A stretch of DNA of 32,000 nucleotides from Microcystis aeruginosa NIES-2549 (lineage in GTDB: Bacteria > Cyanobacteriota > Cyanobacteriia > Cyanobacteriales > Microcystaceae), in assembly GCF_000981785.2 (NCBI RefSeq), contig NZ_CP011304.1:330001-362000 (forward strand), given 5' to 3'. Position 1 is the first letter of the stretch. Each line of letters begins with the position of its first letter. Both the position numbers and the translations under genes were made by a program. Positions 3,961 to 20,349 of the stretch are shown here, piece by piece. Below the pieces are notes generated by a model, which made no database searches, had not been told where the DNA came from, and saw only the letters and a list, made by a program, of their open reading frames with translations.

Positions 3961-5553
3961 TTAAGGATAAGTTTTAATTAGTCCTTGAGCTTGGTAAACA
4001 TGAAATTGTTCAATGGCGACACCACCGCGCTTGATGGGAATGACAGCTACTTTAGTTATATCTTGGAAATAGGGACGGTAGCGATCGATTATTTCTGGTC
4101 TTTCTAGGGAACTATTTGTAGTAATTAATAAACCATTTTTACCGATCCATTCTTGAGGATTAAACCAAATTTGATAACCCCTTTGATCGTTGTTAAAACA
4201 GGTGACGGGAATAGGAACTAGGGGATAAAGGGCCATATCTAGCCATGCTGTCACATAAAAACTATGGGTAAAAACGAAGCTAGAATCTTTTAATAGTGCT
4301 AATAATTCGGGCGAATTAGCAAAGCCTTGGCGCAGTTGATCGATATCGACAATTTCCCGAGAAGGGTCTTGTTCTGGGGCAATAATTCCCCCAAAGATTG
4401 CGTATTGACTAGGTTTTTGGAAAGTACCAAAAGTAACGTGAAGCATTGCTATAGATAAAACAGTAACGATAAAAATTCCCGATCCCCATAACCATCTTTT
4501 TACCCAGATTCGAGAAGATTGCTGCCAAGTAGCGGCCTTTTCTCCTAATAAAATCGTGCAGGACCAAAACCCGGGTAAAATCCAACTAGGGGCGAGATAA
4601 TGGGAAGCACCCACATAAAGCATTCCCAGGATTAAAGGCAGAGAAACCGAGAGAATCAACCATTTTTTTAGGGATTCTTCTTCTCGATGAAAAAATCTTT
4701 TTTTCGAGAGAAAGCTAGGAATTTGTTCGCCAAAGCTTTTAAATGTCACCCACCACATCGGCAAACCAAAAGGAGGAAACATCGTGGCGATACTAATGCC
4801 AATAACCGAGAGAATACCGAGAATATTAAAGGTTTTGGGTTCTCCAGAAAAACGGTCTTCTAAATGAAAGCGGAAGGAAATCCAATCATGGTTAATATTC
4901 CAGTAGATAATCGGCAATAAAGTTATCAAAAAAAGAATAAATCCTAATCCCAACCAAGGGGATCTAAATACAGGCCAATAGCGGGGAGTAGTCAGACAAA
5001 ATAAAACTAAACCAAAACCCAAAATAAAGCCGTGATATTTACTTAAAACCGCCAATCCTACGGCAAGTCCAATATAAGCGAGACGATAGCTAGGATGATA
5101 GTTTTTTTCCCGAATTGGCCAGAATTCTTGGGCAGCTAAATAGACTGTTAATGACCAAAAAAAGATTAAAGGACTATCTGGCTGCGAGAGAATCCCGAAG
5201 ACAATCCCATAGATGGGGATGAGAGTTGCGATCGCTAAAGTCATTCTGGCGACCGGCAGACTGAACAATTTTAAAGCCGTCAGATATAGCAAGCAGAGGC
5301 TGCCAGTATAGAGAAGGAGAGTACCGAAGCGAATAGTAAATTGATTGACTAATCCCGTGATCCAAGTCCCAAAACCCGTGGAAATCGCTACTATTGGCGG
5401 ATGATCGAAATAACTCCAATCCAGATTATGGCTGTAAACGTAATAATATGCCTCATCGTACCCCGGATAAAGCCCCAGGGCGATGATGATTCTAAACAGG
5501 AGTCCACCGATGAGCAGATAAACGGCAATGCGATCGCTAAGTATTTTCGTCAA
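3961..5553 (-). CDS. GT-C fold glycosyltransferase, family 39/83 (ArnT/PMT_2-like)
   Basis: 530 aa with more than 10 TM segments, an acidic YDEAYYY motif in the first loop after TM1, and a C-terminal soluble domain. Confidence 0.8.
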   Translation of the reverse strand: MTKILSDRIAVYLLIGGLLFRIIIALGLYPGYDEAYYYVYSHNLDWSYFDHPPIVAISTGFGTWITGLVNQFTIRFGTLLLYTGSLCLLYLTALKLFSLPVARMTLAIATLIPIYGIVFGILSQPDSPLIFFWSLTVYLAAQEFWPIREKNYHPSYRLAYIGLAVGLAVLSKYHGFILGFGLVLFCLTTPRYWPVFRSPWLGLGFILFLITLLPIIYWNINHDWISFRFHLEDRFSGEPKTFNILGILSVIGISIATMFPPFGLPMWWVTFKSFGEQIPSFLSKKRFFHREEESLKKWLILSVSLPLILGMLYVGASHYLAPSWILPGFWSCTILLGEKAATWQQSSRIWVKRWLWGSGIFIVTVLSIAMLHVTFGTFQKPSQYAIFGGIIAPEQDPSREIVDIDQLRQGFANSPELLALLKDSSFVFTHSFYVTAWLDMALYPLVPIPVTCFNNDQRGYQIWFNPQEWIGKNGLLITTNSSLERPEIIDRYRPYFQDITKVAVIPIKRGGVAIEQFHVYQAQGLIKTYP

Positions 5554-7335: not shown

Positions 7336-7941
7336 GTCAGGGATCGACAAGGATTATCTATCCCTAGACAGACCACCGGAGCGGTCAGAGGTGAAAATAG
7401 GTGTAAGATCAAAAAATTCTCCGATAACTGTTGCCCTATCCCCCGCGTGCCTACCTAGGGGCCTTAGAATCTTCTAGGGAAGGGATGAATCAATGGACGA
7501 TAATCCAAGGGGTAGAAATGGGCAGACCCAGCACTATACAATTAAAGTTTCAGAAAAACAACCGGGCAATTACGGAAGTTTCTGTGGGTGGTGCATCAGT
7601 TCTAGTCTGCCAAGGCAAGATGATAATTGCCGATGGGGAAACAAAAAGCGATATAAAAAGGTCATTGTGAGAGTGGTGGCCGAAGTTGGTAAAAAGGAGA
7701 TGAACAATGTTAAAACATTAAGACCTGCAAGGATCAATCTCGGTTTTGTGGGATGGATGACAATAAATTTGACAGGGTATATCGAAAAATATAAAATTTC
7801 TAGAGGGATAACCAAGAAAAAATACGGCAGTTATCTTAATGGCGAGGCAGTAAGCAAAACGAGGTTATGCTTGGTTTTTCTGAGAAAATCTGTCAGAGTC
7901 AATAGAATATCTATAGTTAGAGCCTATTAAAATTAATCATT

Positions 7942-10900
7942 ATGCTCACCTCTTATCAGGAACTACAAAAAGAACTTAGTTTGTCGTTACAAGACTTAAA
8001 TAGTTTTGCCGACAAATTCCAGGAAAGTTATGATATTATAGTGTCTGCAAACGAAATCAATGAGAATCATGGTGTCGGGGTTCTTTTAAAGAGAATTTTC
8101 CCTGATACCAGTGGGATAGTCTCCTTACGAACCACTAATCTCTACGGAGGGGAGCATCATTTTGGCGTTCAGAATTTTTGCCTAGATGTGCGCGGTTGTT
8201 CCTACGCAGAAATATTAGTAAAAATTCAAAAATTATTTGTTTATACAAAACCAAGAAGAGTTTTAGTAATCCCATATTTTACCGAGGATTTTTATGTAGG
8301 GGCGGCGATTAAATCTCTCTTTCAAGTCCCAGTTTGTACCTACTTGATGGATGATCAGAACGTCTATGTCAGGGCTGTGGCCGATGGCATTGTTAAGCAA
8401 TTAATAGATAATAGTGATCTAGTTTTAGGTATTTCTAAGCCCCTGTGCCAAGCCTATAGTAAAAAATACGAAAGGAAAATTTGGTTTGTACCGCCTCTAG
8501 TAGAAAGTCATTTAATGCCACCAGAAATTACCGCCCCCGATTCTATGGCAAGAGGGATTTTGATCGGTAATATCTGGTCTCAGACTTGGCTAGAAAATCT
8601 CAGGCAATTATGTCGAGAATCCCAGATCAAATTAGATTGGTATGGCAATCCTAATCGTCAATGGTTGCAATTCCAAGAAGCAGAGTTAGAACAAGATGGT
8701 ATCTTCTTTAAAGGTTACTGCAGCCAAGATGCTCTCATCTACTACTTACGTCAAGCACCTTTTGCAATCGTTCCCACCGCCAGTTCTGAAAACGAGCAAG
8801 ATCGTCCCGAATTCGCCTGTTTGAGTTTGCCTTCCCGTATTCCCTTTATTACCGCCGTTGCTAATACTCCGATCATTATTGTTGGTCGTGAAGATAGTGC
8901 CGCCGCTCAGTTCGTCAAAGAATTCGACCTAGGAACTGTCTGTGATTATAAAGCTCAAAGCTTATTAACAGAAATAGAGAAACTGCGAATAGAAAGCAAT
9001 CAACTGCGGCTCCGTTATTCCAGTCAAAAATTAGCCAAAAGCTTAAAAGCCGATCATTTTGATGATTGGCTCTGGAGATCGTTAGAACAGGGAAAACCCA
9101 TCGATAATCGCTTTGAACAATTCGAGAAAAATAGCCTTAAGTGCAGTGTGATCGTCACCGCTAGTGAAGTCAATCAAAGTCACGGGACAGGAGCTTTGGT
9201 CAGAAGAATCTTTCCCGATGATAGCGAGATTATTTCCATCCGTTCCGATAATCACTATGGTGGTGAACAACAATTCGGGGTCTTAAGCTTCCACCTTGAC
9301 CATAAGAAAATGTCGCGACCGGCGATATTTCAATCAATTCTCCAAACTCTCGGACACCATCAAGTCCAAAAAGTTTTTTGTGTCCCCTACTATGCCAGCG
9401 ATATTCTGACATCGATCGCTATTAAGGAATTATTTAATGTTCCCCTTGCCACCTACATCATGGACGATCAGAATATCTGCGTTCAGGAGATATCTGATGC
9501 TTTGATGGGGGAGTTTTTAAGCAAATGTTCCGTTCGTTTTGCCACCCATCCCGAACTCCGCGACGCTTACGAGAATAAGTACGGCTACAAATTTTGGCTC
9601 CTACCGGCGATCGTTCCCCACCGTCTCATTAATAGTGAAGTTGCCGAAGTTTCTCCCCAACGCTGTCAAGAAAAATGGGGAGCTTTATTAGGGAGTATTT
9701 GGAGTCCCCAATGGTTCCAATCTCTTTTAGAGAGTATTCAAGGAGCAGGAATTAAACTAGATTGGTATGGCAATTCTAACTATTATTGGCTCAAAGAATC
9801 TGCCGCAGAATTAGAAAAATGGGGACTTTATAGCCAAGGACTTTATCCCGAAGAACAACTAGGACAACAACTACAAGCATATCCCTTTGTTATTGTTCCC
9901 ACGGGGACCATGGACGAAAGAGATGATCGGACAGAATTGTCTCGCCTTAGTTTACCCGGCCGGATTATTTTTAACCTTGCCACCGCTAACACCCCGGTAA
10001 TTCTTTTAGGCAGTAATAAAACCTCGGCGGCTAACTTTATTAATCGCTTTCAAATCGGGGTGGTTTGTGATTATACACCCGAAAGTTTGGCAGCAGCCGT
10101 GGACTACGTTCTTAACCCAGAAAATCAGCAAAGAATGCGAGAAAATGCCGTTAAAGTAGCGGCAAAATTCTCCGATCAAGATATTAACAATTGGGTGTGG
10201 CAGTCCCTAGAAAAAGAACAGGCGTCCGATGACAGATTTGAAGCGATTTTACCTCGATCGCCGATAGATGCCGTGCCTTTTATTGAGCCACCTGTCCCCA
10301 AAAAGATTTATAAAGATTATGTGCCAGTTTATCAAGTGATGCGTCGTCTGCAAGGCCAGGGTTATCAACCGGATTTCGTTATTGATGTCGGTGCCTCCCA
10401 CGGCATCTGGTCTTTTACCGTTAGTCAATTATTCCCTGAAGCTCGTTATCTTCTCATCGATCCCTTGACTTCCCAATATGAGCAGTTCGCTAGAGATTAT
10501 TTTATCGGCAATATCCCCGTGGCAGAATTGTTGGAAGTGGCGGTTTCCAATGAAGAAGGACGTTTAAATTTGCAAGTTTCTGCCGATTTTTACTGTAGTT
10601 CCCTGCTTAATCCCGCCGATTTGAGAGACTATCAGCCGTTGGAAGTGGTTGTCACTACTATTGATCGGATCGCCGCAGAGCAGCAGATTTCCGGGCGTGG
10701 CATTCTCAAAATAGATGTTCAATACGCCGAACATCTTGTCTTAGAAGGAGCGCAAGCATTTCTCCCCCAAGTAGATTTGATTATCGCCGAACTATCCGTG
10801 ATCCGATACGATGAGAAATCTCTAGTTATTAGTGAAATGATTGATTGGTTAGACCGGTTGGGATTTCGCTATTATGACGAAACGGGAGAATGGCGATCGC

Positions 10901-11004
10901 CAATAGATGGAACTCTCTTGCAAAAGGAAATCGTCTTTATCCGTCAGGATCTATTAGTTCCCGAAACTAACCGAGAAATTAATCAATTTCCCTCTAAACC
11001 TTGA
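7942..11004 (+). CDS. Tri-modular protein: two duplicated ~370-aa modules (possibly GT-B-like glycosyltransferase) plus a C-terminal FkbM-family (Methyltransf_21) methyltransferase
   Basis: Module 1 starts at aa 31 (SANEINENHGVGVLLKRIFPD...LSLPSRIPFITAVANTPIIIVG). Module 2 starts at aa 402 (TASEVNQSHGTGALVRRIFPD...LSLPGRIIFNLATANTPVILLG). The FkbM motifs are IDVGASHGIWS (aa ~814) and LKIDVQYAEHLVLEGA (aa ~923). Confidence 0.8.
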   Translation: MLTSYQELQKELSLSLQDLNSFADKFQESYDIIVSANEINENHGVGVLLKRIFPDTSGIVSLRTTNLYGGEHHFGVQNFCLDVRGCSYAEILVKIQKLFVYTKPRRVLVIPYFTEDFYVGAAIKSLFQVPVCTYLMDDQNVYVRAVADGIVKQLIDNSDLVLGISKPLCQAYSKKYERKIWFVPPLVESHLMPPEITAPDSMARGILIGNIWSQTWLENLRQLCRESQIKLDWYGNPNRQWLQFQEAELEQDGIFFKGYCSQDALIYYLRQAPFAIVPTASSENEQDRPEFACLSLPSRIPFITAVANTPIIIVGREDSAAAQFVKEFDLGTVCDYKAQSLLTEIEKLRIESNQLRLRYSSQKLAKSLKADHFDDWLWRSLEQGKPIDNRFEQFEKNSLKCSVIVTASEVNQSHGTGALVRRIFPDDSEIISIRSDNHYGGEQQFGVLSFHLDHKKMSRPAIFQSILQTLGHHQVQKVFCVPYYASDILTSIAIKELFNVPLATYIMDDQNICVQEISDALMGEFLSKCSVRFATHPELRDAYENKYGYKFWLLPAIVPHRLINSEVAEVSPQRCQEKWGALLGSIWSPQWFQSLLESIQGAGIKLDWYGNSNYYWLKESAAELEKWGLYSQGLYPEEQLGQQLQAYPFVIVPTGTMDERDDRTELSRLSLPGRIIFNLATANTPVILLGSNKTSAANFINRFQIGVVCDYTPESLAAAVDYVLNPENQQRMRENAVKVAAKFSDQDINNWVWQSLEKEQASDDRFEAILPRSPIDAVPFIEPPVPKKIYKDYVPVYQVMRRLQGQGYQPDFVIDVGASHGIWSFTVSQLFPEARYLLIDPLTSQYEQFARDYFIGNIPVAELLEVAVSNEEGRLNLQVSADFYCSSLLNPADLRDYQPLEVVVTTIDRIAAEQQISGRGILKIDVQYAEHLVLEGAQAFLPQVDLIIAELSVIRYDEKSLVISEMIDWLDRLGFRYYDETGEWRSPIDGTLLQKEIVFIRQDLLVPETNREINQFPSKP

Positions 11005-11028
11005 TCCTCTATACCTAAAATATACCCC

Positions 11029-12417
11029 ATGATGAAACAATTATTAGCCAAAAATAAAATAGTTCGGCGAGTTAAAGCAGTCAAAGATTTATTTTTAGAA
11101 AAACTTGATTTACTCAGTCATGTCCAACTTGAACAAATCCAAAAACTGGAAAAACTGGAGAAACTTAATCAGCTTGATCCCTTAGATTTTAAGGTTGAGC
11201 AACTCAATAACTCCACGGAGCAAATCCGACAAGAAAATGCAGAAACCAAGCGAAAGGCTGATTTATCACTGGAAAATCAAGCCTTTTTGCTCAAGTTTTC
11301 CGTCGATATAATTAAAAATATGCAAGTATTGACGGAAAAAATCCAGACAAATCACAGCCAATCTCAAAAACAGCACGAATCAACTCTGGACACTTTCCAA
11401 AAAATAGCCAGCGATGTGCGATTAGACTCCCAAAAAATAGCCAGCGATGTGCGACAAGACTCCCAAAAACATAGTGATTTAATTCTCGATTCTTTCCAGA
11501 GAATTTATGAAGCTTACCAACAGCAAAGCGATGCTATTTTTGGAACCGTACAGAAAATACAAGAAAATCTCCATCAAATCAGCGAAGATAACCGCCAAAT
11601 CTTTGAAGATATTCACTCTCAAAAATATAAAGTCATTACCGATCAACAATATTTCCAAGATCTAGACATCGAATTAATGACTTATTTATATTCCTATCTT
11701 CCCCATCGTCTAGCATTAGATATTGGTGCTAATCGTGGCGATGTTTCTAGTCGTCTCCTACAAGCTGGTTATCAAGTTTATGCCTTTGAACCTTTTCCTC
11801 CCGTCATCGATAAGCTGAAAAATCGCCTCGGTGATCATCCTAACTTTCGGCTTTTTCCCTTTGCTCTCGGTTCCGAAAATCAAACCCAAGAACTGAATAT
11901 AGCCACGGATGAAACCGCCGACAACACCTATCAAGATGCCAGCTTTTATAGCAGTCTAACCAAGCATTCTCTTTCCGAAGGTTTAGTATTTACCGATACT
12001 ATTCCCGTCACCGTTAAAACCCTAGCCAGCCTCCACGATGGCGAGGAATTACCTAAAGATATTGGTTTAGTTAAAATTGACACAGAAGGCTTTGATTTAG
12101 AAGTAATCAAAGGTATGGGCAACTATCGTTATCCCGTGGTAGTTGCGGAATTTTGGGATAAAAATTTCCCCTTTGGTCGTTCGGGAGCGATGAATCAATT
12201 ACCAGATTTAGTCAAGGCCATGAAAGAAAGAGATTATCATTGGCATCTAGTTATCTATCGTATTTGGGGAAGTTCCGACGTTAGTTATTACTGTAATTCT
12301 GCATATTCCCTCGATAATTCTTGGGGCAATGTTTTCTTTTTCAAAGATTATCAGGTCTTCCATCAAGCCTTACTTTGGTCTGCTTCTGTTATGCCAGCTA
12401 CCTACTTTTCTGCTTAG
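11029..12417 (+). CDS. N-terminal ~200-aa coiled-coil region fused to an FkbM-family methyltransferase
   Basis: The N-terminal half is rich in Q/K/E/L and heptad-like (LEQIQKLEKLEKLNQL, QKIASDVRLDSQKIASDVRQDSQK). The C-terminal half has LDIGANRGDVSS and VKIDTEGFDLEVIKGM. Confidence 0.8.
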   Translation: MMKQLLAKNKIVRRVKAVKDLFLEKLDLLSHVQLEQIQKLEKLEKLNQLDPLDFKVEQLNNSTEQIRQENAETKRKADLSLENQAFLLKFSVDIIKNMQVLTEKIQTNHSQSQKQHESTLDTFQKIASDVRLDSQKIASDVRQDSQKHSDLILDSFQRIYEAYQQQSDAIFGTVQKIQENLHQISEDNRQIFEDIHSQKYKVITDQQYFQDLDIELMTYLYSYLPHRLALDIGANRGDVSSRLLQAGYQVYAFEPFPPVIDKLKNRLGDHPNFRLFPFALGSENQTQELNIATDETADNTYQDASFYSSLTKHSLSEGLVFTDTIPVTVKTLASLHDGEELPKDIGLVKIDTEGFDLEVIKGMGNYRYPVVVAEFWDKNFPFGRSGAMNQLPDLVKAMKERDYHWHLVIYRIWGSSDVSYYCNSAYSLDNSWGNVFFFKDYQVFHQALLWSASVMPATYFSA

Positions 12418-12465
12418 AAAATTAGAAGTCAATTATTTTTCACAGAATAACTAACTAGGTGAGTA

Positions 12466-13971
12466 ATGATTATGAAAAAAAATATATCCTTAAGCAGTGA
12501 AATTTTGATTCTCATCGGTTTGGGAATTGCTTTTTTGCTAGTAGGCATATTCTTTGGACCTAGATTACAACCCGTGTGGATAGATGAAGTAGCATTGACA
12601 GAACCAGCAGCCAATCTAGCTTTATACGACAGTTTTACCTCGGCTGCTTGGTGGCATCAAAATGCTCAAGAGTTCCATGTTGGCGTTTCTTTTCTTTATA
12701 CATTTTTGCTGGCTTTATGGATAAAAGTTTTGGGATTTAGTATTGAAAAAGTTAGGCTTTTTAATTATGTGTTAATGCTTCTTAGCATCACTGTAATCTG
12801 GTTATTCATCAAGAACTTGCCTTTAATTAAGTTTTCTTGGCTAAGAATCATCCTAGTGGTTAGTTGTCTTTTGCCAGCAGGAATTACCTTTATTTATACA
12901 TCGGGAAGGTACGACACTTCCTGCATTTTCTTATCAGCACTGGTTTTGGGAGCTTTTTTAATAAAAGATGCTAAAATCCGATGGCTTACTATGACAATTA
13001 TTGGATTTTTCTTTCCCCTTTCCGGATTGTCAGCAGTGGCCTTTGCCATAATTTTTGGCGTTATCCTACTCCTTTTCAACTTTCAGCGATTTTTTCGGGA
13101 ATTTGTCGCTCTAATTGGGGGATTTATTTTAGGAATGTTATTTCTTTATGCACTTTACTCAACCAATGGTGTTTGGGATGATTTTGTTGGTATGACTTTG
13201 GGTCAGATTGCTGACAATGCCAACCGCAACAGAAGTGTCATTGATATAATATTTTCCAAAGTGAGCAAACTTTTTGACCAGAAAGATTATGTGTGTCGTG
13301 GCTGCTCGGGAGATCTGTCTTTTCCCCCACTGTCAGTACTGCTGATGATCTTGATATTTTATGAACTATTGACCAAATCTTTCCAGTGGCGTTCTCCTTC
13401 CTTTTTTGCTTTGATCACCGTTATTACCATACCAACTACTATGTGTTTTCTGGGGAAATATCCACTTTATTATAGTTGGATGTCGATGTTTCCCTTGATA
13501 ATTTGTATTTGCTGGAGTTTTAATAACATTTTAGAAAAAAATACTGGCAAAATTCAGACGACAATTATTAGTATAGCTTTTTTGGTTTTATTGTTTTATG
13601 CCAACTTACTAGGACTACCTTACCGAGCGCAAATTACCTTACAACAATGGGAAAATAATGACTATACTAAAGTACAAAACTTTCTTGACAACAAAATCAA
13701 TCATGAGGAGCATATTTATGCTGATTTTCAAGCATTCTACGCCCTCAAGTCTCGGGGTAAACGAGTTTATTTCCCCCTTTATAATGGGCAGATGACACCA
13801 GAGGATAGGGATAATCTTTCATTAATTGTCATTGATCCTAGGGCCAGTGCTAGAGCGCCCTGGAATCCCGGATTAGCAGAAATTGTTGGCGACTCACTCC
13901 CCCAGTGGTACGATACAGGAGAACAGTTAGATACAGGCACTTATGGGATGAAATTGTACCGAAAAAGATAA
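12466..13971 (+). CDS. Polytopic membrane protein, GT-C-like glycosyltransferase / oligosaccharyl-transferase candidate
   Basis: 501 aa with about 11-13 hydrophobic segments and an acidic WIDEV motif directly after TM1, as in GT-C enzymes. The C-terminal ~110 aa are soluble. The family assignment is not secure. Confidence 0.6.
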   Translation: MIMKKNISLSSEILILIGLGIAFLLVGIFFGPRLQPVWIDEVALTEPAANLALYDSFTSAAWWHQNAQEFHVGVSFLYTFLLALWIKVLGFSIEKVRLFNYVLMLLSITVIWLFIKNLPLIKFSWLRIILVVSCLLPAGITFIYTSGRYDTSCIFLSALVLGAFLIKDAKIRWLTMTIIGFFFPLSGLSAVAFAIIFGVILLLFNFQRFFREFVALIGGFILGMLFLYALYSTNGVWDDFVGMTLGQIADNANRNRSVIDIIFSKVSKLFDQKDYVCRGCSGDLSFPPLSVLLMILIFYELLTKSFQWRSPSFFALITVITIPTTMCFLGKYPLYYSWMSMFPLIICICWSFNNILEKNTGKIQTTIISIAFLVLLFYANLLGLPYRAQITLQQWENNDYTKVQNFLDNKINHEEHIYADFQAFYALKSRGKRVYFPLYNGQMTPEDRDNLSLIVIDPRASARAPWNPGLAEIVGDSLPQWYDTGEQLDTGTYGMKLYRKR

Positions 13972-13992
13972 ACCCGAAGTAATTCCAAGGAT

Positions 13993-14739
13993 ATGAACTC
14001 TGAAAAACTGCAATTAAGGTCTGATTATCAAAAAATGCTTGATGACTTAGATCCTCAAGTCCTCCAGTTGGATCGACAGGTATTTAAACGGCTACAAAAC
14101 CTAGGTTACACCCCAAGGGTGATCTTTGATGTGGGTGCCTCTAATAGTGGCTGGTCCTACTATATCAAACAGGTGCTGCAGGAAGCTGAATTTTATCTCT
14201 TTGAACCTCTTATCGAATACAGCAGCGACTATCGGGAATTAATCTCAGAAATTCTGCGAGTCTATCCCTCCTTTCATCTGTATAAATACGCCCTAGGTGA
14301 AACCTGCGGCGAGGTGACGATGAATGTTTCCACGGACGTGGTGAGCAGTAGCCTCTTGCAAACCGGTGATGAGAGTCAGCCCACCACCCCCATCTCGGTG
14401 CAAATGTTAACAATTGATGACGCAATTGCCCGACTTGGTTTACCCCATCCCCAAGTGATCAAAATTGATACCCAAGGCTCGGAGTTGTCTATACTTAAAG
14501 GAGCCGTCAAAACCCTAGCTAAAGTCGATGTTCTCTTTCTCGAATGCTGGCTCTATCGGGGCTATGGCCAAAAAACTCCCCTCTTAACCGAAATCGCCGA
14601 TTGGTTATTATCCTTTAATTTTCGGCTTTGGGATGTGGCCGATGCCTATCGCGATCAAGGGGGAGTGCTAACCACATTAGATTGTATTTTTGTAAATACT
14701 CAAGCCAGTATTACCCCGATTTGGTACTATGAGAACTAG
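13993..14739 (+). CDS. Stand-alone FkbM-family methyltransferase
   Basis: 248 aa with FDVGASNSGWSYY and IKIDTQGSELSILKGA motifs. Confidence 0.85.
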   Translation: MNSEKLQLRSDYQKMLDDLDPQVLQLDRQVFKRLQNLGYTPRVIFDVGASNSGWSYYIKQVLQEAEFYLFEPLIEYSSDYRELISEILRVYPSFHLYKYALGETCGEVTMNVSTDVVSSSLLQTGDESQPTTPISVQMLTIDDAIARLGLPHPQVIKIDTQGSELSILKGAVKTLAKVDVLFLECWLYRGYGQKTPLLTEIADWLLSFNFRLWDVADAYRDQGGVLTTLDCIFVNTQASITPIWYYEN

Positions 14740-15014
14740 AGTGGCTTGACTTTCCTAACCCTTCTAGTCTTTGCCGTGCCAGGGAAAAGAAGAACAGTCT
14801 ATTTTCTTCCCAGATATCCGATAGACCAAGTACCAAGTTGGAGAGCAAGGGACAGGATTAAACAGTCCTTAGATCACTATCTCGGTCAGGGAAAATTAAG
14901 CCATAGTTAAGAGGGCTTTTCCTAACCCCAGTTTTTCCTGCGGGAAAAACTTAGGGTCAAGCCTCCATTCAGACTATCCAAGGAATAACTTTTTTATGTC
15001 CACCGGATTTCTAC

Positions 15015-15043
15015 TTGCCCAAACCAGAAAAATTTGTTATACT
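15015..15043 (+). promoter_or_regulatory. Putative sigma70-type promoter TTGCCC-N17-TATACT for the surface-protein gene
   Basis: The hexamers and 17-nt spacer were read directly. They lie ~80 nt upstream of ATG 15125, which is preceded by the GAGGAG Shine-Dalgarno at 15106-15111. Confidence 0.4.
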
Positions 15044-15124
15044 TTTATCCGAGTAGCCGTTAGGGTCCCCCGACCTCTGGACGGACTCAAATTATCATAA
15101 CCGTGAGGAGTTGAGATTAAAAAC

Positions 15125-17665
15125 ATGGCAATCAGTACAGAAGTATACGCTTCGTTAAATATTCTTTATGCTTCCCAAGCTCCGTCAGCCTCTGACATTA
15201 GCTTGTGGCAGACTGACCCTAGCTTGACATCCCTGACTTGGGAAGAAACGGTTCTTGTTTTCGCCAATTCGGCCGCAGCCCAACAAACCTATCCCCTCTT
15301 GGCTGCCCCCGGAGCCGCCACCGATGCCACCAGACGGCAGTACGTTCTAGAGGTTTTTAACAATGCCTACGGCCTAGAAGAAGCCGATTTAAATGTCGAC
15401 GAGATTAACTACTGGGTTGAATGGCTCAGTCTCACCAATCCCGATGGTACGCCCGCCGACAGCGATGGCAACGGCATCCCCAATATTTTAGATTTTCCCA
15501 TCGTCCTTAACCAGTACCAGCCCGCTGCCATCCAACAGGCCCTGCTCAACCGGGCAGAAGTAGCCCTCGATTTCGCTGCCCAGTTCCAACTGGAAGGTAT
15601 TTCTAACTTTACCGAGGAAGACTACAACACCTCTTGGAGCATCCTTGAAACCGTGACCGCAGAAGAGGCTAGTGTTACTGCGGCTAAGGCCGCTAACCTA
15701 GTGGCCGCCGCCGAAGCTGGTGGGGCTGGCAATAGCGAAGCCTTGACCGCTGGTCAGGACGATTTCACCGCTAACCTTTTCCTCGCCGCCCCCGTCAACA
15801 ACTTCGGGCAGGTCAACCAAACCCTGAACAGTGGTGATAAACTAACCGGTTCCGGCACTAACCCCACTTTAACCGTCCTCTGGACTGGTGGTGCTGAAAG
15901 CGTCCTACCCATCTTCACCGATGTGGAGACCCTTAACGTTACTAACACGGGTCCTGTCGGTAATCTTTTGACCATTCTGGGAGCCAGTGTCACTGGTCTC
16001 AAGAATGTCAATGTTGCTGATAGTGTTTCTAGTATTGTTGGCGGTTTTATTTTCAGTAGCGATTTCTCATTGACCAACACTCAAACCGCAGTGGAAACGG
16101 TTTCTCTGAGCCGCACTAATGCTGATACCATCATCACCATCGCCAATGCCGCTCTTGCCGGTGACGAAGATGCGGTGACACTCACCTTGAATCAAGCTGG
16201 TACCGTCGCTGATAATGCTCAACTAACTCTTAATCCAGTATCTGGCACCGATGGCTACGAGCAACTAGCGATCGCGACCGAAGGGTTGGCCAGCACCGTT
16301 GATCTGACTGCCGTCGGTATTGAGGAAGTAACCATCACTGGGGATCAAGACCTAACCCTCACCAATGCCCTGGCCAACACCGCTACCAAGCTAGATGCCT
16401 CCGAGTTTGAGGGTGATTTATCCGTGATATCTGGTACCGGAACCATTGACTTTACAGGTGGTCTCGGTGATGATACTTTCACGGTCAACGGCTTTACCAG
16501 TGCGGATATCGTCGATGGTGGTGAAGGGACTAACACCCTAGAAGTGACCGCCGCTAATGCCGAAGGGATTACGGCCGAGAATGACAATATTACCAACATC
16601 CAAACCTTAGCCTTAATCAGTCCTGGTACTGCTGGCGCTACCCTACGGGCTGACCTTATCGGTGATGAAATCACTACGGTGGAGCTAGGAGGGGGGACTT
16701 TTGGTGCTTATACTATTCGCTTCAACGCGGGCAATAACACCTTAACCACTTTAGGCAACACTGGTGCTTTAGACGTTCAAGCGGAAGGCACTGCCACTAC
16801 CGATGCCCTCACCCTGAATATCGATGGAGCAGAGGCAAACAATCTCACTTTGACCTCTTTGACGTTAAACAACGTCGATCGACCGAGCGAGCAACTTACC
16901 ATCAACTCCACCGATGCTCCCGCTGGCCACACAATTGGGGCTGTCACCCTGCCTGATACCAACGGCGTAAATAACGCGATTACCATCACTGGTAACTCCA
17001 CTTTGACTATTGGTGGTGCAGTGACGGCGGACGAAATCGACGCTTCTGGCATGACCGATGGTGCGGCACTGGTGATGAATGGCAATTCTGCCATTGCCAT
17101 CTCCATCACTGGTTCGGAAGGCGATGACCGATTAGTTGGTAGTATTTTGCGAGACAGTATTAGCGGTGGGGGTGGTAATAATAATATTACTGGTGGTCTC
17201 GGTACAGACCAACTCACCGGTGGCGGCGGTATCGACACATTTGTCCAGGGGACTGCTGACAGTGCGGCTCGATCTGCGATTAGTGGTGCGGCGGCAGATA
17301 CCTTTACTGCCAATGGAACTATTACCTTTGCACCAGTTGGTACCTCTGCTGTCCCCAACGTCGATATCATCCGAGGATTCGTGGGCGGTGCTAATGGTGA
17401 CATACTGGACTTGAATTTTGCCGCGGCAGCAGTTACGGGTATTGGCGTAGCGAATAACAATCTGGCGGCTAACACCAACTACTTCTTGTCTGGTAACTTT
17501 ACCCTTGGCACGGGCGTATTTACTATTACCTCCGATGGCGGTGGTGCCGACACCTTGATCATTCAAGGTAATGGTGGTGCTAACTTCTTTGGGGGCGCTA
17601 ACGCTTCCTCGATCGTGTTACTTGGCCTTAACAGTAACAACTTAGTGGCTGCTAACATCATCTAG
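15125..17665 (+). CDS. Secreted surface / S-layer-like protein with RTX (GGxGxD) calcium-binding repeats; probable type I secretion substrate
   Basis: 846 aa. I see no Cys and no N-terminal signal peptide, and the composition is T/A/G/N/L-rich. The N-terminal region has a DUF4214-like stretch (YVLEVFNNAYGLEEADLNVDEINYWVEWL). RTX-like runs are FTGGLGDDTFTV and GSEGDDRLVGS...SGGGGNNNITGGLGTDQLTGGGGIDTF (nt ~17111-17245). Confidence 0.8.
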   Translation: MAISTEVYASLNILYASQAPSASDISLWQTDPSLTSLTWEETVLVFANSAAAQQTYPLLAAPGAATDATRRQYVLEVFNNAYGLEEADLNVDEINYWVEWLSLTNPDGTPADSDGNGIPNILDFPIVLNQYQPAAIQQALLNRAEVALDFAAQFQLEGISNFTEEDYNTSWSILETVTAEEASVTAAKAANLVAAAEAGGAGNSEALTAGQDDFTANLFLAAPVNNFGQVNQTLNSGDKLTGSGTNPTLTVLWTGGAESVLPIFTDVETLNVTNTGPVGNLLTILGASVTGLKNVNVADSVSSIVGGFIFSSDFSLTNTQTAVETVSLSRTNADTIITIANAALAGDEDAVTLTLNQAGTVADNAQLTLNPVSGTDGYEQLAIATEGLASTVDLTAVGIEEVTITGDQDLTLTNALANTATKLDASEFEGDLSVISGTGTIDFTGGLGDDTFTVNGFTSADIVDGGEGTNTLEVTAANAEGITAENDNITNIQTLALISPGTAGATLRADLIGDEITTVELGGGTFGAYTIRFNAGNNTLTTLGNTGALDVQAEGTATTDALTLNIDGAEANNLTLTSLTLNNVDRPSEQLTINSTDAPAGHTIGAVTLPDTNGVNNAITITGNSTLTIGGAVTADEIDASGMTDGAALVMNGNSAIAISITGSEGDDRLVGSILRDSISGGGGNNNITGGLGTDQLTGGGGIDTFVQGTADSAARSAISGAAADTFTANGTITFAPVGTSAVPNVDIIRGFVGGANGDILDLNFAAAAVTGIGVANNNLAANTNYFLSGNFTLGTGVFTITSDGGGADTLIIQGNGGANFFGGANASSIVLLGLNSNNLVAANII

Positions 17666-17697
17666 GTCTGAAGTGATTGACTTTAGATCTTGAATAG

Positions 17698-17728
17698 AAC
17701 CCAATCCCTTTATCGGGATTGGGTTTTT
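17698..17728 (+). terminator. Rho-independent terminator of the surface-protein gene
   Basis: The 11-bp perfect stem AACCCAATCCC / GGGATTGGGTT has a 6-nt loop and runs into a T5 tract, 33 nt after the stop codon. Confidence 0.75.
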
Positions 17729-17901
17729 AGTTTTTTCTAGTTCCAGGGTTCTACCTTTGCGTCCTGTGGGTAACGCACAGAAAACGGGTTTCTCCGAGAA
17801 ACCCGTTTTCTACCTTTGCCCCTACTTTTTCAGCTTTTCTGGGGGAAGTAGTAGGGTTAATTCATGAATTAACCCTACCTTTGATAAGGGGGGTGATAGC
17901 T

Positions 17902-18165
17902 TCAATTTCCTCGCGACTTTTCTGGGGGAAATCGCTTTAAGAGTTGCTGCTTGGAATACTGTAGGAGTAAAGGGGTAAATTCTTCCGGGGACAATTGTAA
18001 AATCCGGCTGATAATAGCTTGCAGTGGTGGGTCTAACTCACCGAAGCGGACTCGGAGCAGGTTTTCCACCACCAGACGTTCCCCCTCTTGCAGACCCCGT
18101 TCTTCTCCTTCGGCCAGTGCCTCTTGATAGACTCTCGTTTGTTTTAAATCACTTAGTCCAAACAT
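17902..18165 (-). pseudogene. DUF4351 fragment (C-terminal domain of an Rpn-family recombination-promoting nuclease / putative transposase), copy 1
   Basis: 87 aa: MFGLSDLKQTRVYQEALAEGEERG...LLRVRFGELDPPL...LSPEEF. In frame upstream of the ATG the DNA still reads KSREEIEA, the linker typical of full-length family members. This indicates a truncated relic. Confidence 0.6.
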
Positions 18166-18252
18166 AGCTTCAATTTCCTCGCGACTTTTCTGGGGGAAGT
18201 AGTAGGGTTAATTCATGAATTAACCCTACCCTTGATAAGGGGGGTGATAGCT

Positions 18253-18552
18253 TCAATTTCCTTGCGACTTTTCTGGGGGAAATCGCTTTAAGAGTTCCTG
18301 CTTGGAACACTGTAGGAGTAAAGGAGTAAATTCTTCTGGGGACAATTGTAAAATCCGGCTGATAATAGCTTGCAGTGGTGGGTCTAACTCACCAAAGCGG
18401 ACTCGGAGCAGGTTTTCCACCACCAGACGTTCCCCCTCTTGCAGACCCCGTTCTAAACCCCGTTCTAGACCCCGTTCTAGACCCCGTTCTTCTCCTTCGG
18501 CCAGTGCCTCTTGATAGACTCTCGTTTGTTTTAAATCACTTAGTCCAAACAT
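18253..18552 (-). pseudogene. DUF4351 fragment, copy 2, with a 36-bp in-frame expansion (ERGL)x3
   Basis: 99 aa, near-identical to copy 1 apart from three extra 12-bp ACCCCGTTCTAR units (array 18445-18492). Confidence 0.6.
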
Positions 18553-18837
18553 AGCTTCAATTTCCTCGCGACTTTTCTGGGGGAAGTAGTAGGGTTAATT
18601 CATGAATTAACCCTACCGGCTCTTCTAGGTTCTGTGTGATAAGTTTAACTTACAATATGATCGATCTTTGTGTCCTCTGTGTCTGGAGTGGTTCCCTCCA
18701 CTCCCTCGCCAGCAGGACTGTATCTCAGAATACATTTTACCCACCAAATCCAAAAGAGCCAATCTAGGGGACATGGCTCTTTTCCTGTATAATCAAGTCT
18801 TAATTTTATGACTTGCCATTATATTTGAGGAAAATCT

Positions 18838-20349
18838 ATGAATTGGACAGAGGGATATGTATTGGAAGTTAACTACACTAGCGGCTTTTACGGCGAGTTA
18901 AGTCCCCTAAAATTAGGTTTAGCCACTCTGATTAAATCCATTCAACCCCCCGATTCTAGCCAAGAATTTACCTATTGTGAATTGGCCTGTGGTCAGGGTT
19001 TTACCACGAATATTTTAGCGGCAACCTATCCCCACGCCCAATTTTATGCCAATGATTTCAATCCTAGTCATATCGCCACGGCTAGAGATTTAGCGGCCAA
19101 GGCGGGGATGAAGAATATTCTTTTCTTTGATGATAGTTTTGAGGAATTTTTAGAGCGAGATTTACCTCAATTTGACTTCATCAGTCTGCACGGAATTTAT
19201 AGCTGGATTAGTGCCATAAATCGCCAAGCAATAGTTAATTTTATTCGCCGCAATCTCAAGGTGGGGGGATTAGTTTATATCTCCTATAATGCCCTTCCGG
19301 GTTGGTCAGCAGCGATGCCGATGCAGGCTTTAATGTTGCGTCATGGTCAACACAGTTCCGAACCAATTTTAACCCGCATTGAACAGGCTCTTAATTTTAC
19401 AGGAGAATTATTAGAAGCTAATGCTAGTTATTTTGCCCAAAATCCAATTTTAAAAAGTCGTTACGAGCGCCTAAAGGAACAAAATCGTTATTATTTAGCT
19501 CACGAGTATTTCAATCAGGAATGGAATTCTTTTTACTTCGATGAAGTGGCGAAAGAATTAGAGGATGCTAAACTTAAATATGTGGGTTCTGCCCATATTA
19601 ATGACCATATTGATACAGTCAATCTCTCCCCAGTTGCCCAAGAAAAATTAGCCAAAATCAGCGACCCAATCTATCGGGAAGTGGTGCGAGATTTCTTTCT
19701 TAATAGCCAATTCCGTCGTGATATTTTTAGTCGAGGCTCCTTAGGTTTAACCCTCCAAGAACAGGTTAAACAACTAGAAGAAACTCGGTTTGCCATGATT
19801 GTTAATCCCGCAATTATCAAGTTCGAGCATCAGTTTCCCGTGGGAGAAGTTAAGTTACAGGAGACAGTTTATCAGCCAATTTGTGAAGTTTTGGCGGAAT
19901 CTCCCCAAACTTTACTGCAACTAAAAAATCACCCCAAAACCTCAAATATTAACTTAAATGGTCTTTCCCAAGCTCTGATGATTTTAACTGGTATTGGCTA
20001 TATTCATCCTGCTGTGGATGAGCAAACTTGCCAACAACGGAAACCATCTACTGATGCTTTTAATAATGCAGTGAAAGCGAAAGCAGTCTATAGTGAGGAA
20101 TTAAGCTTTTTAGCTTCTCCTTTGATTGGGACTGGAGTAGTGGTCAATCGTTTAGAACAATTATTCCTCTTGGCTAAATCCTATAACCAAGATGCAGTAC
20201 AATTTGTTTGGCAAAATTTGGCAAGTCAAGGCAAAAAAGTGGTTAAAGATGGGAAACCTTTGGAAACAGAGGAGGAAAATATTACGGTTCTTCCGAACTT
20301 ACACTGTGGAAAATTCCCCAAGCTCCCTCTCTGTCCAGCAATGCTCTAA
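18838..20349 (+). CDS. Class I SAM-dependent methyltransferase with C-terminal methyltransferase regulatory domain (PF10119-like); C-terminus rewritten by a MITE insertion
   Basis: 503 aa with WTEGYVLEVNYTSGFYGELSP at the start, the SAM motif ELACGQGF, and HGIYSWIS. The last 22 codons are MITE-derived. Confidence 0.8.
   Translation: MNWTEGYVLEVNYTSGFYGELSPLKLGLATLIKSIQPPDSSQEFTYCELACGQGFTTNILAATYPHAQFYANDFNPSHIATARDLAAKAGMKNILFFDDSFEEFLERDLPQFDFISLHGIYSWISAINRQAIVNFIRRNLKVGGLVYISYNALPGWSAAMPMQALMLRHGQHSSEPILTRIEQALNFTGELLEANASYFAQNPILKSRYERLKEQNRYYLAHEYFNQEWNSFYFDEVAKELEDAKLKYVGSAHINDHIDTVNLSPVAQEKLAKISDPIYREVVRDFFLNSQFRRDIFSRGSLGLTLQEQVKQLEETRFAMIVNPAIIKFEHQFPVGEVKLQETVYQPICEVLAESPQTLLQLKNHPKTSNINLNGLSQALMILTGIGYIHPAVDEQTCQQRKPSTDAFNNAVKAKAVYSEELSFLASPLIGTGVVVNRLEQLFLLAKSYNQDAVQFVWQNLASQGKKVVKDGKPLETEEENITVLPNLHCGKFPKLPLCPAML

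Follow-up and report, generated by a model that had tools for sequence, protein, structure and literature searches.

A strain-variable locus of Microcystis aeruginosa NIES-2549 that joins a probable glycan synthesis and methylation cassette to a candidate S-layer-type RTX protein

The DNA considered here (the window) is a stretch of 32,000 nucleotides of the Microcystis aeruginosa NIES-2549 genome (NZ_CP011304.1, positions 330,001 to 362,000), and all coordinates below refer to it. Four tightly packed plus-strand genes, g1 to g4, are followed on the same strand by a gene, g5, for an 846-aa protein, with intergenic gaps of 24, 48, 21 and 385 nt (g1/g2, g2/g3, g3/g4 and g4/g5), and so the reading frames, packing and spacer described in an earlier note, made from the letters alone, are reproduced exactly. 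The features are as follows.

7453–20285, plus strand: block that travels together in Microcystis, from g1 to the downstream methyltransferase (blastn against L084, L002, L003 and L004; gene maps)
7769–7797, plus: sigma-70-like promoter match upstream of g1, TTGACA-N17-TAAAAT, 11/12, the best such site there, a consensus match only
7942–11004, plus: g1, 1020 aa (ORF call), predicted trifunctional soluble enzyme comprising an N-terminal helix, a pair of GT-B modules and an FkbM methyltransferase
8023–9129, plus: g1 GT-B module 1, aa ~28–396, part of a duplication, two Rossmann-like halves in the model, GT4-like Foldseek matches
9139–10251, plus: g1 GT-B module 2, aa ~400–770, bearing most family-invariant residues (HGxG, MDDQN, LSLPGR)
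10378–10872, plus: g1 FkbM domain, aa 813–977 (PF05050 3.2e-14; TIGR01444 2.4e-23)
11029–12417, plus: g2, 462 aa, predicted helical N-terminus (aa 1 to ~200) and FkbM-type core with C-terminal extension (aa ~200–462)
11397–11474, plus: g2 tandem repeat in the helical region, in-frame, 33 nt, 2.3 copies, copy number variable among strains
12466–13971, plus: g3, 501 aa, predicted GT-C-fold membrane glycosyltransferase, family uncharacterised, conserved D40-E41 motif in a loop, C-terminal alpha/beta domain on the periplasmic side
13993–14739, plus: g4, 248 aa, stand-alone FkbM methyltransferase
15015–15043, plus: promoter-like site in the 385-nt spacer, TTGCCC-N17-TATACT, TG preceding the −10, weak, 9/12
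15125–17665, plus: g5, 846 aa, predicted RTX-type surface protein, Cys-free, signal-peptide-less, of a DUF4214-related family
15125–15609, plus: g5 N-terminal "handle", conserved in the DNA over about 160 codons and in the protein over 185 aa (82% identity)
15610–17665, plus: g5 hypervariable body, replaced in other strains by alleles of distant or no relationship
16988–17362, plus: g5 RTX beta-roll block, aa ~622–746 (phmmer against alkaline protease/serralysin, E=8e-7)
17696–17727, plus: intrinsic-terminator-like hairpin 3' of g5, 13-bp stem then a T-run
18838–20349, plus: class I SAM methyltransferase with a MethyTransf_Reg domain, downstream of g5, a putative member of the system

The spacer site does lie where the earlier note had seen a promoter of g5's own, but it is weak evidence for one because it matches at only nine of twelve positions in a region where such matches abound (34 observed against 20 expected); the terminator described after g5 is real. 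Homology to other Microcystis strains starts at about 7453–7455, also in those with another upstream flank, and gene maps show EF-G and YchF replacing cyp38 and PMT_2 as upstream neighbours. Remnants of a repeated 299-aa gene lie on both sides of the locus.

Aligned over 365 aa, the paired modules of g1 share 38% identity (E=1e-98), and in the AlphaFold model (pLDDT 87.6) each consists of two Rossmann-like domains, the GT-B fold, with BshA, MshA, HepE, PimA and Gtf3 as Foldseek matches (E 1e-8 to 1e-10, TM on the target 0.6–0.74). Further matches include Gtf3 (3qkw, mid-ranking), the L. reuteri accessory-secretion GtfC (9htx) and the mycobacterial MMP mannosyltransferase (7qsg). The suggestion of two paralogous GT-like modules joined to an FkbM domain thus holds for the duplication, for the fold, as the structure search gives it, and for the methyltransferase. 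Family models see less of this, Pfam Glycos_transf_1 reaching 25.5 bits on the whole of g1 (cut-off 26.4 bits), 17.4 on module 1 alone and nothing on module 2, and Gtf3_C (PF26337) giving faint precomputed matches only, on g1 and its homologs, and none in local Pfam scans of g1 and its separate modules even at E<=10. The earlier remark that a canonical GT4 EX7E is missing from the duplicated modules agrees with the finding that no [ED]x7[ED] pair is conserved in more than 80% of 34 g1 homologs, the equivalent position of the family reading D-x-x-D-D...L-S-L-P-[SG]-R. With EX7E lacking and the Pfam score below its cut-off, it is the modelled fold that suggests the modules to be active glycosyltransferases. 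Homologous GT modules are elsewhere fused to GT2 or to other methyltransferase domains.

The FkbM domains (g1 aa 813–977, g2 aa 230–376, g4 aa 43–212), all three of them claimed before, score 53.9/83.2, 56.1/92.4 and 55.3/92.8 bits respectively with PF05050/TIGR01444, well above the curated cut-offs of 22.7/37.7 bits. They are mutually only ~30% identical and so represent distinct subfamilies. Three such domains in four genes had been thought unusual, which they are not within this gene family, since related loci hold three to five FkbM genes. The first 200 residues of g2 are almost without Pro and Gly and are rich in repeats, and so this N-terminus is clearly predicted to be helical; its length runs from ~90 to ~270 aa among taxa (472 in one) and shifts between Microcystis strains through in-frame repeats. 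Copy number and allele of g4 also vary among Microcystis strains.

The g3 protein has about 10–11 hydrophobic helices and a confident model (pLDDT 94.8, pTM 0.93) with a C-terminal alpha/beta domain at aa ~400–501, and W38-D40-E41, after TM1, together with R148/D150, are at least 90% conserved among 50 distant homologs, so the polytopic protein with an acidic motif and a soluble C-terminal domain is seen much as first described. Its Foldseek matches are PglB, STT3, ALG12, ArnT, AglB, DPY19, AftA/B/D and Emb (E 3e-6 to 1e-3), with TM scores of 0.55–0.61 to ArnT and ALG12 and of only 0.38–0.51 to PglB. Of the two folds expected, GT-C or Wzy_C, the first is therefore found and the second is not: g3 matches no Pfam or NCBIfam model, and Wzy_C gives nothing in it even at E<=10. 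An assignment as a Wzy_C O-oligosaccharyltransferase or O-antigen ligase (WsaB, PglL, PilO, WaaL) was accordingly rejected, the fold matches being of the ArnT/ALG/OST type, and with it the idea that g3 is the counterpart of WsaB; the enzymes that g3 resembles are ArnT, ALG12 and PglB. Assignment as STT3/PglB (GT66) was rejected also, there being no STT3 family match, no PDB sequence match and a length of 501 against about 700 aa. With ArnT/PMT_2-type and Aft/Emb-type enzymes g3 shares the fold and the acidic motif of the first periplasmic loop, but in contrast to them it lacks any Pfam or NCBIfam match; PMT_2/GT39/GT83 (ArnT-like) was set aside since PMT_2 has no match in g3, only 3 of 50 distant relatives match it weakly (best 3.7e-4) and BLASTP of g3 against the PMT_2 protein of the same window gives E=0.85. 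Some databases nevertheless label g3 GT39. The active site should face the periplasm. Distant g3 homologs adjoin a UbiA prenyltransferase and a GT2_TM_C synthase, which is what polyprenyl-phosphate-sugar donors would lead one to expect, and g3 may stand for a hitherto undescribed GT-C family whose role would be to ligate or decorate a methyl-capped polymer with a UbiA-derived lipid-phosphate-pentose donor. The family is large and unannotated, with 741 cluster representatives at 50% identity.

As for g5, its composition is as the earlier note had it, with no Cys, 12.8% Thr, 6.5% Ser and 0.5% Lys, rich in Thr, Ala, Gly and Asn, and with no TM or signal-like segment found. Its sequence, with a single block, looks only modestly RTX-type, because Pfam HemolysinCabind scores 19.7 bits, just under the 23-bit cut-off. 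DNA identity of ~91–92% (blastn) extends from g1 through the spacer to about codon 160 of g5 and is then lost until past the terminator, and another allele is 82% identical in its first 185 aa and unrelated beyond. Full-length homologs in Sulfitobacter (E=1e-16), also Cys-free and with DUF4214, are placed among T1SS genes, a GT4-methyltransferase fusion, further GT4s and TolC. The protein, lacking a signal peptide, looks like a type I secretion substrate and as such would bypass the periplasm; composition, the DUF4214-related N-terminus and analogy make it a candidate S-layer-type protein.

Of 76 loci, spread over at least five phyla, most have a g2-like gene directly behind the g1-like one, and this pair is an uncharacterised conserved module. 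It occurs without a g5 homolog in many cyanobacteria and in Verrucomicrobia, Acidobacteria, Myxococcota and Proteobacteria, and in Geminocystis, where g1, g2 and g3 are grouped, the surrounding 10 kb contain no RTX gene. A g5-type gene follows the cassette in all the Microcystis genomes sampled, whatever lies upstream. The proposed linkage of cassette and surface protein is therefore constant within Microcystis and never seen outside it, where the cassette without a surface-protein gene, the observation that the earlier note had named as contrary to its proposal, is what was found. Thirteen loci have a strong Wzt homolog (E<1e-55) at most 10 kb from the pair, nine of them Wzm as well and none a g5-like gene, and a Wzt-type ABC ATPase so placed points to a lipid-linked polysaccharide. 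Wzt_C matched four neighbour proteins of g1/g2 homologs and lay on Wzt itself in the one gene map checked; in Aphanocapsa Wzm and then Wzt with its Wzt_C are directly upstream of the g1/g2 homologs. GT2, sugar-nucleotide epimerases/dehydratases, sulfotransferases, ABC_tran and Wzt_C are enriched near the pair.

The interpretation offered by the earlier note is borne out in part. Overall the locus is best explained as a strain-variable cell-surface island of two coupled parts. That g1 to g4 form a glycan-synthesis and methylation cassette is very probable, and its product is probably lipid-linked and exported by an ABC transporter. Some functional coupling of the cassette to g5 is likely on balance and, given coupling and a polysaccharide product, a non-covalent form of it is mildly favoured. 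Taken whole, the preferred reading, an O-methylated, Wzm/Wzt-exported surface polysaccharide on which an S-layer-type protein docks, is put forward tentatively. [quoted passage not shown] The finished chain would be exported by a Wzm/Wzt transporter encoded elsewhere in the Microcystis genome, where Wzm/Wzt sit apart from other glycan genes (PMC4390846). On the far side g3, its D40-E41 facing the periplasm, would modify the exported glycan, probably from a polyprenyl-phosphate-sugar. The g5 protein, RTX-type and S-layer-like, would be secreted by the type I route and dock through its N-terminal ~160–185 residues non-covalently on the glycan, and its exposed body would be exchanged among strains. 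Several observations count against this reading. A scan of the window for Wzm/Wzt, an initiating transferase, a WaaL ligase, nucleotide-sugar genes and T1SS genes finds none, the earlier note having listed the exporter, nucleotide-sugar and type I secretion genes as absent. The g1 modules have neither EX7E nor a Glycos_transf_1 score above the cut-off, and g3, which one Microcystis genome (L003) and the majority of g1/g2 loci do not have, is accessory.

Escherichia coli O8/O9a (WbdA, WbdD, and Wzm/Wzt with a cap-binding domain) offers a likeness of architecture for the first part, in that a multi-GT-domain GT-B polymerase appears to go with a separate long-helix methyltransferase, in that the g1/g2 pair of other taxa adjoins Wzm and a Wzt_C-bearing Wzt, and in that methylation is a candidate chain-end signal. 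Unlike that system the methyltransferases here are FkbM-type and not of the WbdD class, there is no kinase, g1 carries a methyltransferase domain of its own and GT modules without EX7E, and a GT-C enzyme, g3, is extra. The helical region of WbdD is C-terminal, whereas that of g2 is N-terminal. For the docking part the likeness is to RsaA of Caulobacter crescentus and SapA of Campylobacter fetus, type-I-secreted S-layer proteins whose N-terminal domains bind the LPS O-antigen and which, as g5 appears to do, combine a Cys-poor composition and an RTX-type or T1SS-dependent character with the lack of a signal peptide. In C. fetus the SapA proteins share a conserved N-terminus, about 184 aa long, and vary in the body that follows, and in Caulobacter O-antigen genes adjoin the S-layer gene. 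A PDB sequence search detects neither sequence nor structural homology of g5 to RsaA or SapA, and in contrast to these, g5 varies between strains and not by cassette switching within a genome, its anchoring being a prediction.

Of the alternatives, the one that survives best, though it is rather unlikely, has the cassette making a methylated O-antigen or exopolysaccharide with g5 a mere neighbour in a recombination-prone surface-antigen island, the two never physically interacting and sharing the island because phages and grazers select for diversity in both. No g5 homolog accompanies the cassette outside Microcystis, g5 is set apart by 385 nt and an apparent promoter-like site of its own (weak as that 9/12 match is), and the 299-aa gene remnants flank the locus; Microcystis genomes are moreover mosaic, with FkbM genes typically strain-specific (PMC4390846, PMC5647855). 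Yet the order from g1 to g5 withstands upstream rearrangement in every Microcystis genome sampled, the Sulfitobacter g5 homologs are accompanied by an independent, non-homologous GT/methyltransferase set, and conservation of the g5 handle implies that what it binds is conserved too.

A second alternative, the proposal of the earlier note recast so that the topology allows it, and judged unlikely, is that g5 is itself glycosylated, the soluble g1 modules O-glycosylating its Ser and Thr residues sugar by sugar in the cytoplasm and the FkbM enzymes methylating the sugars before export. Gtf3 and GtfC glycosylate serine-rich-repeat adhesins in this manner, and Gtf3 (3qkw) and L. reuteri GtfC (9htx) are among the g1 fold matches, as Gtf3_C is among the faint family matches of g1 homologs. 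Further in its favour, g1, g2 and g4 are all soluble, g5 abounds in Thr and Ser, cassette and g5 are strictly syntenic in Microcystis, and the Sulfitobacter g5 homologs directly follow GT4/methyltransferase and T1SS genes. Glycosylation is also reported for the cyanobacterial RTX surface proteins Sll1951, SwmA and oscillin, which favours a covalent link over the docking preferred here. To set against these, g1/g2 homologs (50–58% identity) adjoin Wzm/Wzt(+Wzt_C) without g5 in other cyanobacteria, Geminocystis has g1/g2/g3 with no nearby RTX gene, the site-bearing part of g5 is not conserved among alleles, and we know of no well-established precedent for a glycosylated chain passing through a T1SS. 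Stated in its specific form, with g1, g2 and g4 as a cytoplasmic machine of sequential O-glycosylation and O-methylation for a type-I-secreted g5 and Gtf3-like modules acting on Ser/Thr, the proposal is more doubtful again.

Such covalent modification has a precedent in the genus, the CT pilus (MrpC) of Microcystis bearing O-linked 160/174-Da sugars and having a GT and an FkbM methyltransferase in its cluster (PMC12397347). With this, and with the glycosylated RTX surface proteins, the earlier remark that no cyanobacterial system linking such a cassette to an RTX S-layer-type protein was known is not supported. The likeness is one of genus, of a surface protein, there glycosylated, and of a GT+FkbM cluster, but the 12-kDa pilin is unrelated to g5, its GT is of the O-GlcNAc-transferase type and not g1-like, and there is no GT-C enzyme. 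Less likely than the stepwise route is en-bloc transfer with g3 as the oligosaccharyltransferase for g5, which PglB and STT3, among the top fold matches of g3, would suit. The active site of g3 should however lie in the periplasm, through which T1SS substrates do not pass, and g3 has no Wzy_C, unlike WsaB, PglL and PilO. In the Geobacillus stearothermophilus NRS 2004/3a system (WsaE, WsaB, Wzm/Wzt, and SgsE as S-layer protein), where glycan genes lie beside the S-layer gene, WsaE joins two GT domains to a capping O-methyltransferase and WsaB is a Wzy_C-family O-OTase acting on a Sec-exported protein (PMC2943079). WsaE is like g1 in its two GTs and methyltransferase but has the latter at its N-terminus, WsaB differs from the ArnT/ALG/PglB-like fold of g3, and SgsE is Sec-exported in a monoderm while g5 has no signal peptide and is apparently type-I-secreted in a diderm. 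A product away from the surface, be it a polymethylated polysaccharide kept inside the cell, as is the mycobacterial methylmannose polysaccharide, or a natural product that is a methylated glycoside, would suit the MMP mannosyltransferase match (7qsg), the soluble g1, g2 and g4 and a window without an exporter, but is highly improbable given the polytopic GT-C enzyme g3, the Wzm/Wzt and Wzt_C co-located in many other taxa and a hypervariability of the surface-antigen type.

Microcystis blooms rely on surface traits, among them colony formation, buoyancy and resistance to phages and grazers, and the O-antigen, S-layer and methylated-sugar genes of the genus are largely unassigned, so that the locus supplies concrete candidates: the widespread g1/g2 polymerase/methyltransferase pair, the GT-C family of g3, and in g5 a surface protein of handle and swappable body. 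Docking of the handle on the glycan, as preferred here, would give the cyanobacteria an equivalent of the anchoring of RsaA and SapA and would explain how both parts vary jointly among strains. Were g5 instead glycosylated, the missing glycosylation machinery of the cyanobacterial RTX S-layer glycoproteins would be identified, and were this to occur in the cytoplasm it would be the first defined pathway for such a glycoprotein, would mean that a T1SS is able to export a glycosylated substrate, and might be the source of methylated deoxyhexose-sized sugars on Microcystis surface proteins. Beyond g5 the MethyTransf_Reg methyltransferase is always found downstream in Microcystis, and it is 93–96% identical.

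There is a strong case that the cassette g1 to g4 builds and methylates a glycan, and this part of the earlier note stands; that the cassette also glycosylates g5, the RTX-type surface protein encoded after it, now seems the less likely reading. The five plus-strand ORFs and the spacing between them are exactly as the earlier note had placed them:

7942-11004, plus strand: g1, ORF for two GT-B modules and an FkbM methyltransferase (1020 aa)
11029-12417, plus strand: g2, ORF for a helical N-terminus and an FkbM methyltransferase (462 aa), 24 nt after g1
12466-13971, plus strand: g3, ORF for a GT-C-fold membrane protein (501 aa), 48 nt after g2
13993-14739, plus strand: g4, ORF for a stand-alone FkbM methyltransferase (248 aa), 21 nt after g3
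15125-17665, plus strand: g5, ORF for the surface protein (846 aa), 385 nt after g4

The FkbM assignments in g1, g2 and g4 pass curated thresholds (aa 813-977, 230-376 and 43-212 respectively), and the strong terminator after g5 is real (17696-17727). The promoter proposed at 15015-15043 is present, but it is a weak 9/12 match in a setting where such matches are common, and upstream of g1 there is a better one (7769-7797). No RNA elements came up in Rfam or tRNA scans of the window. A plus-strand ORF of 145 aa at 7493-7930, which overlaps the best promoter match, was rejected as a gene on account of its lack of a family match and junk-like Lys/Arg-rich composition; other strains keep this stretch of DNA within the 5' leader of the block, and it is probably non-coding.

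The g1 protein shares 97% identity with one from M. viridis and its internal duplication is evident, the two modules being 38% identical over 365 residues (E=1e-98). With 34 homologs as input a confident full-length AlphaFold model was obtained (pLDDT 87.6), and Foldseek matched the modules to GT-B/GT4-like enzymes (E 1e-8 to 1e-10, target TM 0.6-0.74) including BshA, MshA, HepE, PimA, Gtf3, a methylmannose-polysaccharide mannosyltransferase and a capsule multienzyme, a fold that fits their proposed role as glycosyltransferases. They are atypical GT-B/GT4-like members. The Pfam Glycos_transf_1 score falls slightly under threshold, Gtf3_C (PF26337) appears only as a faint precomputed match, and, as had been suspected, no canonical EX7E pair is conserved in the family, which carries HGxG, MDDQN and LSLP[SG]R motifs in its place. 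PDB sequence searches with g1 aa 1-770, g2, g3 and g4 gave nothing useful and fold searches alone were informative; a homolog search with the g3 profile added nothing to a Microcystis-dominated set.

No Pfam or NCBIfam model matched g3, which belongs to a large family (741 cluster representatives at 50% identity in an exhaustive HMMER search, 206 of them at E<=1e-30) with W38-D40-E41 after TM1 and R148/D150 at least 90% conserved. Its model is excellent (pLDDT 94.8, pTM 0.93) and matches GT-C enzymes only, namely PglB, STT3, ALG12, ArnT, AglB, DPY19, AftA/B/D, Emb and PimE, with the top TM-scores going to ALG12 and ArnT; g3 is thus a GT-C enzyme, in line with the GT-C-style motif of the earlier note. 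The further proposal of a WsaB-like oligosaccharyl:protein transferase fails, since Wzy_C is missing and the matches are of the ArnT/ALG/PglB type; a Wzy_C-type O-OTase, taking the WsaB definition from PMC2943079, is ruled out, as is membership of STT3 or PMT_2 at the sequence level. Distant g3-family genes lie beside a UbiA-family prenyltransferase on two unrelated metagenomic contigs (L082:7845-10461 and L083:1006-3471), the first of which also holds a GT2 synthase with GT2_TM_C, DUF6798, a GDSL esterase, three methyltransferases and a carbamoyltransferase. These neighbours hint at a polyprenyl-phosphate-sugar donor for g3, resembling the UbiA/decaprenyl-phosphate-pentose donor logic of the mycobacterial Aft and Emb enzymes. 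The window has a GT-C gene of its own that the earlier note did not mention, a PMT_2/PMT-family glycosyltransferase of 530 aa at 3961-5553 on the minus strand (PF13231, 2.6e-18), about 2.4 kb upstream and outside the block conserved in other strains; its comparison with g3 was not significant (E=0.85).

A genome scan found 76 loci with g1 relatives, and because a g2 homolog directly follows in most of them, in cyanobacteria as well as in Verrucomicrobia, Acidobacteria, Myxococcota and Proteobacteria, the g1-g2 pair is the conserved core. Within g2 the conserved part is the FkbM core with a C-terminal extension (aa ~200-462), the helical N-terminal region ranging from ~90 to ~270 residues across the family, and to 472 in one case; among Microcystis strains this region changes length through short in-frame repeats, such as the 33-nt tandem repeat at 11397-11474. 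Enriched around the pair are GT2 enzymes, sugar-nucleotide epimerases and dehydratases, sulfotransferases, other methyltransferases, ABC_tran and Wzt_C. At 13 loci, which span several phyla, a strong Wzt homolog is no more than 10 kb away, and nine of these have Wzm as well. The Aphanocapsa locus reads FkbM, RTX-like ORF, Wzm, Wzt with Wzt_C, g1-like, methyltransferase, g1-module, g2-like, methyltransferase, GT2 and GT4, a gene set characteristic of polysaccharide synthesis that depends on an ABC transporter, with an exporter able to recognise the cap. Its RTX-like ORF (L027:6307-7485, the same as L080:6403-7581; 392 aa, Cys-free, ten GGxGxD motifs), directly upstream of the Wzm/Wzt genes and the g1/g2 homologs, was not accepted as a second cassette/RTX linkage as its similarity to g5 is confined to generic RTX repeats; its position may be coincidence or a second such case. 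A g3 gene adjoins g1/g2 only in Microcystis, Snowella and Geminocystis, the Geminocystis locus has no RTX gene within 10 kb, and no g5 homolog was seen in any non-Microcystis g1/g2 locus examined.

The favoured product is a lipid-linked polysaccharide exported by Wzm/Wzt, because close g1/g2 homologs (50-58% identical) occur in such clusters and the system includes a GT-C enzyme predicted to face the periplasm. That the window holds no exporter is uninformative here, as according to a review (PMC4390846) Wzm and Wzt in Microcystis stand apart from the glycan clusters and the glycan genes of the genus have a mosaic distribution.

The g5 protein is as described from the sequence, having no Cys, 12.8% Thr and no signal-like hydrophobic segment, and it has one RTX block with homology to the beta-roll of serralysin/alkaline protease (E=8e-7), in keeping with an RTX-type protein. 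It is not MrpC, which is a 12.3-kDa pilin. The only annotated relatives found are two paralogous Cys-free DUF4214 proteins of about 800 aa on a Sulfitobacter faviae plasmid (NZ_CP139727.1, 64440-89825), matching near full length at E=1e-16. Gene order there is T1SS ABC/ATPase, HlyD, SAM methyltransferase, GT4::methyltransferase fusion, GT4, g5-like, HTH and the second g5-like gene, followed further on by TolC, two GT4 genes and an ABC exporter. Its glycosyltransferases are not g1 homologs (no phmmer match), being ordinary Glycos_transf_1 enzymes, one fused to a class I methyltransferase, and the locus is an independent, analogous pairing of the g5 family with GT and methyltransferase genes. 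This arrangement speaks for type I secretion of g5-family proteins, and the locus may itself be an alphaproteobacterial surface-layer and glycan locus.

Every Microcystis genome sampled has the order g1, g2, g3 (where present), one to three or more FkbM genes, a g5-type gene, remnants of a 299-aa gene and a MethyTransf_Reg methyltransferase, and the order from g1 to the last is kept even with a different upstream flank. Divergence between strains differs from gene to gene:

g1: 80-91% identical
g2: alleles of two types, at ~57-64% or ~91-95% identity
g3: 90-93% identity, missing from one genome (L003)
g4-type FkbM genes: number and sequence vary
g5: hypervariable, 46%, 29%, or the N-terminus alone alignable

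Against strain FACHB-905 the DNA is ~91-92% identical without a break over 7455-15609, taking in the 385-nt spacer and the first ~160 g5 codons, after which identity is lost until 17878. The 697-aa allele of FACHB-905, which shares 60% identity with the allele of a further strain, matches g5 at 82% over residues 1-185 and has no relation to it beyond, and so g5 consists of a conserved N-terminal handle with exchangeable bodies. The right edge of the variable segment is marked by tandem remnants of the C-terminal third of the 299-aa gene (17902-18165 and 18253-18552, both minus strand), with a 12-nt repeat in four copies at 18443-18490. Other strains have that gene whole (L084:14059-14958, minus strand), and by eye it resembles the Rpn/DUF4351-type recombination-promoting nucleases, a family abundant in cyanobacteria. 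Beyond it, at 18838-20349 on the plus strand, is a 503-aa class I SAM methyltransferase with the "methyltransferase regulatory domain" PF10119, 93-96% identical and downstream of g5 in all Microcystis sampled, which would be a candidate fourth methyltransferase gene, or fifth methyltransferase domain, of the block.

Three observations speak for a functional tie between g5 and the cassette: the strict synteny in Microcystis, the unbroken homology block that extends into the g5 handle, and the Sulfitobacter analogy. The most coherent coupling would have the conserved handle dock on the glycan while the exposed body varies, the principle by which Caulobacter RsaA and Campylobacter fetus SapA work. 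Less likely is a covalent route, in which the cassette would glycosylate g5 sequentially in the cytoplasm. The weak Gtf3-like signals in g1 are in its favour, as are reports that Sll1951, SwmA and oscillin are glycosylated (PMC3034196; bioRxiv 10.1101/414151) and that ten O-linked sugars of 160/174 Da are attached to MrpC, the CT pilin of Microcystis, whose cluster has a GT and an FkbM methyltransferase (PMC12397347). By our arithmetic these masses correspond to deoxyhexose (146) carrying one or two methyl groups; the authors propose processed O-GlcNAc instead (PMC12397347), and on arithmetic only a methylated deoxyhexose would fit the FkbM methyltransferase better. Transfer to g5 by g3 is not plausible, since type I secretion, the probable route of g5, bypasses the periplasm.

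In its architecture, as opposed to by demonstrated homology, the cassette works like WbdA/WbdD/Wzt of E. coli O8/O9a and WsaE of Geobacillus. It differs from them in methyltransferase family, domain order and the missing EX7E, and further in that g3 has no Wzy_C and g5 no Sec signal. The claim that no cyanobacterial link between such a cassette and an RTX S-layer-type protein had been described holds in the literature searched, although a cluster with a GT and an FkbM methyltransferase has been published for one glycosylated surface protein of Microcystis (PMC12397347); searches on FkbM with cyanobacterial O-antigen and on SwmA-linked glycosyltransferases found no directly relevant open-access study. 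The locus brings together a surface protein of handle and variable body with two widespread, uncharacterised enzyme families, that of the g1/g2 pair and the GT-C family of g3. It offers experiments a good way into the surface glycans and S-layer of Microcystis.

Three further features lie downstream. After the MethyTransf_Reg methyltransferase gene an intergenic, near-perfect 70-nt tandem array (20572-21131, seven to eight copies, 98% matches, also scored at period 140/210) is unlike CRISPR, as the whole unit is repeated with no variable spacers. At 21975-23135 on the plus strand a 386-aa RuBisCO-large-subunit-like protein is, given its short length, probably a form IV RuBisCO-like protein. 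Also on the plus strand, 25369-26331 encodes a weak GT9, heptosyltransferase-like protein, notable because the LPS of cyanobacteria reportedly has no heptose (PMC4390846).
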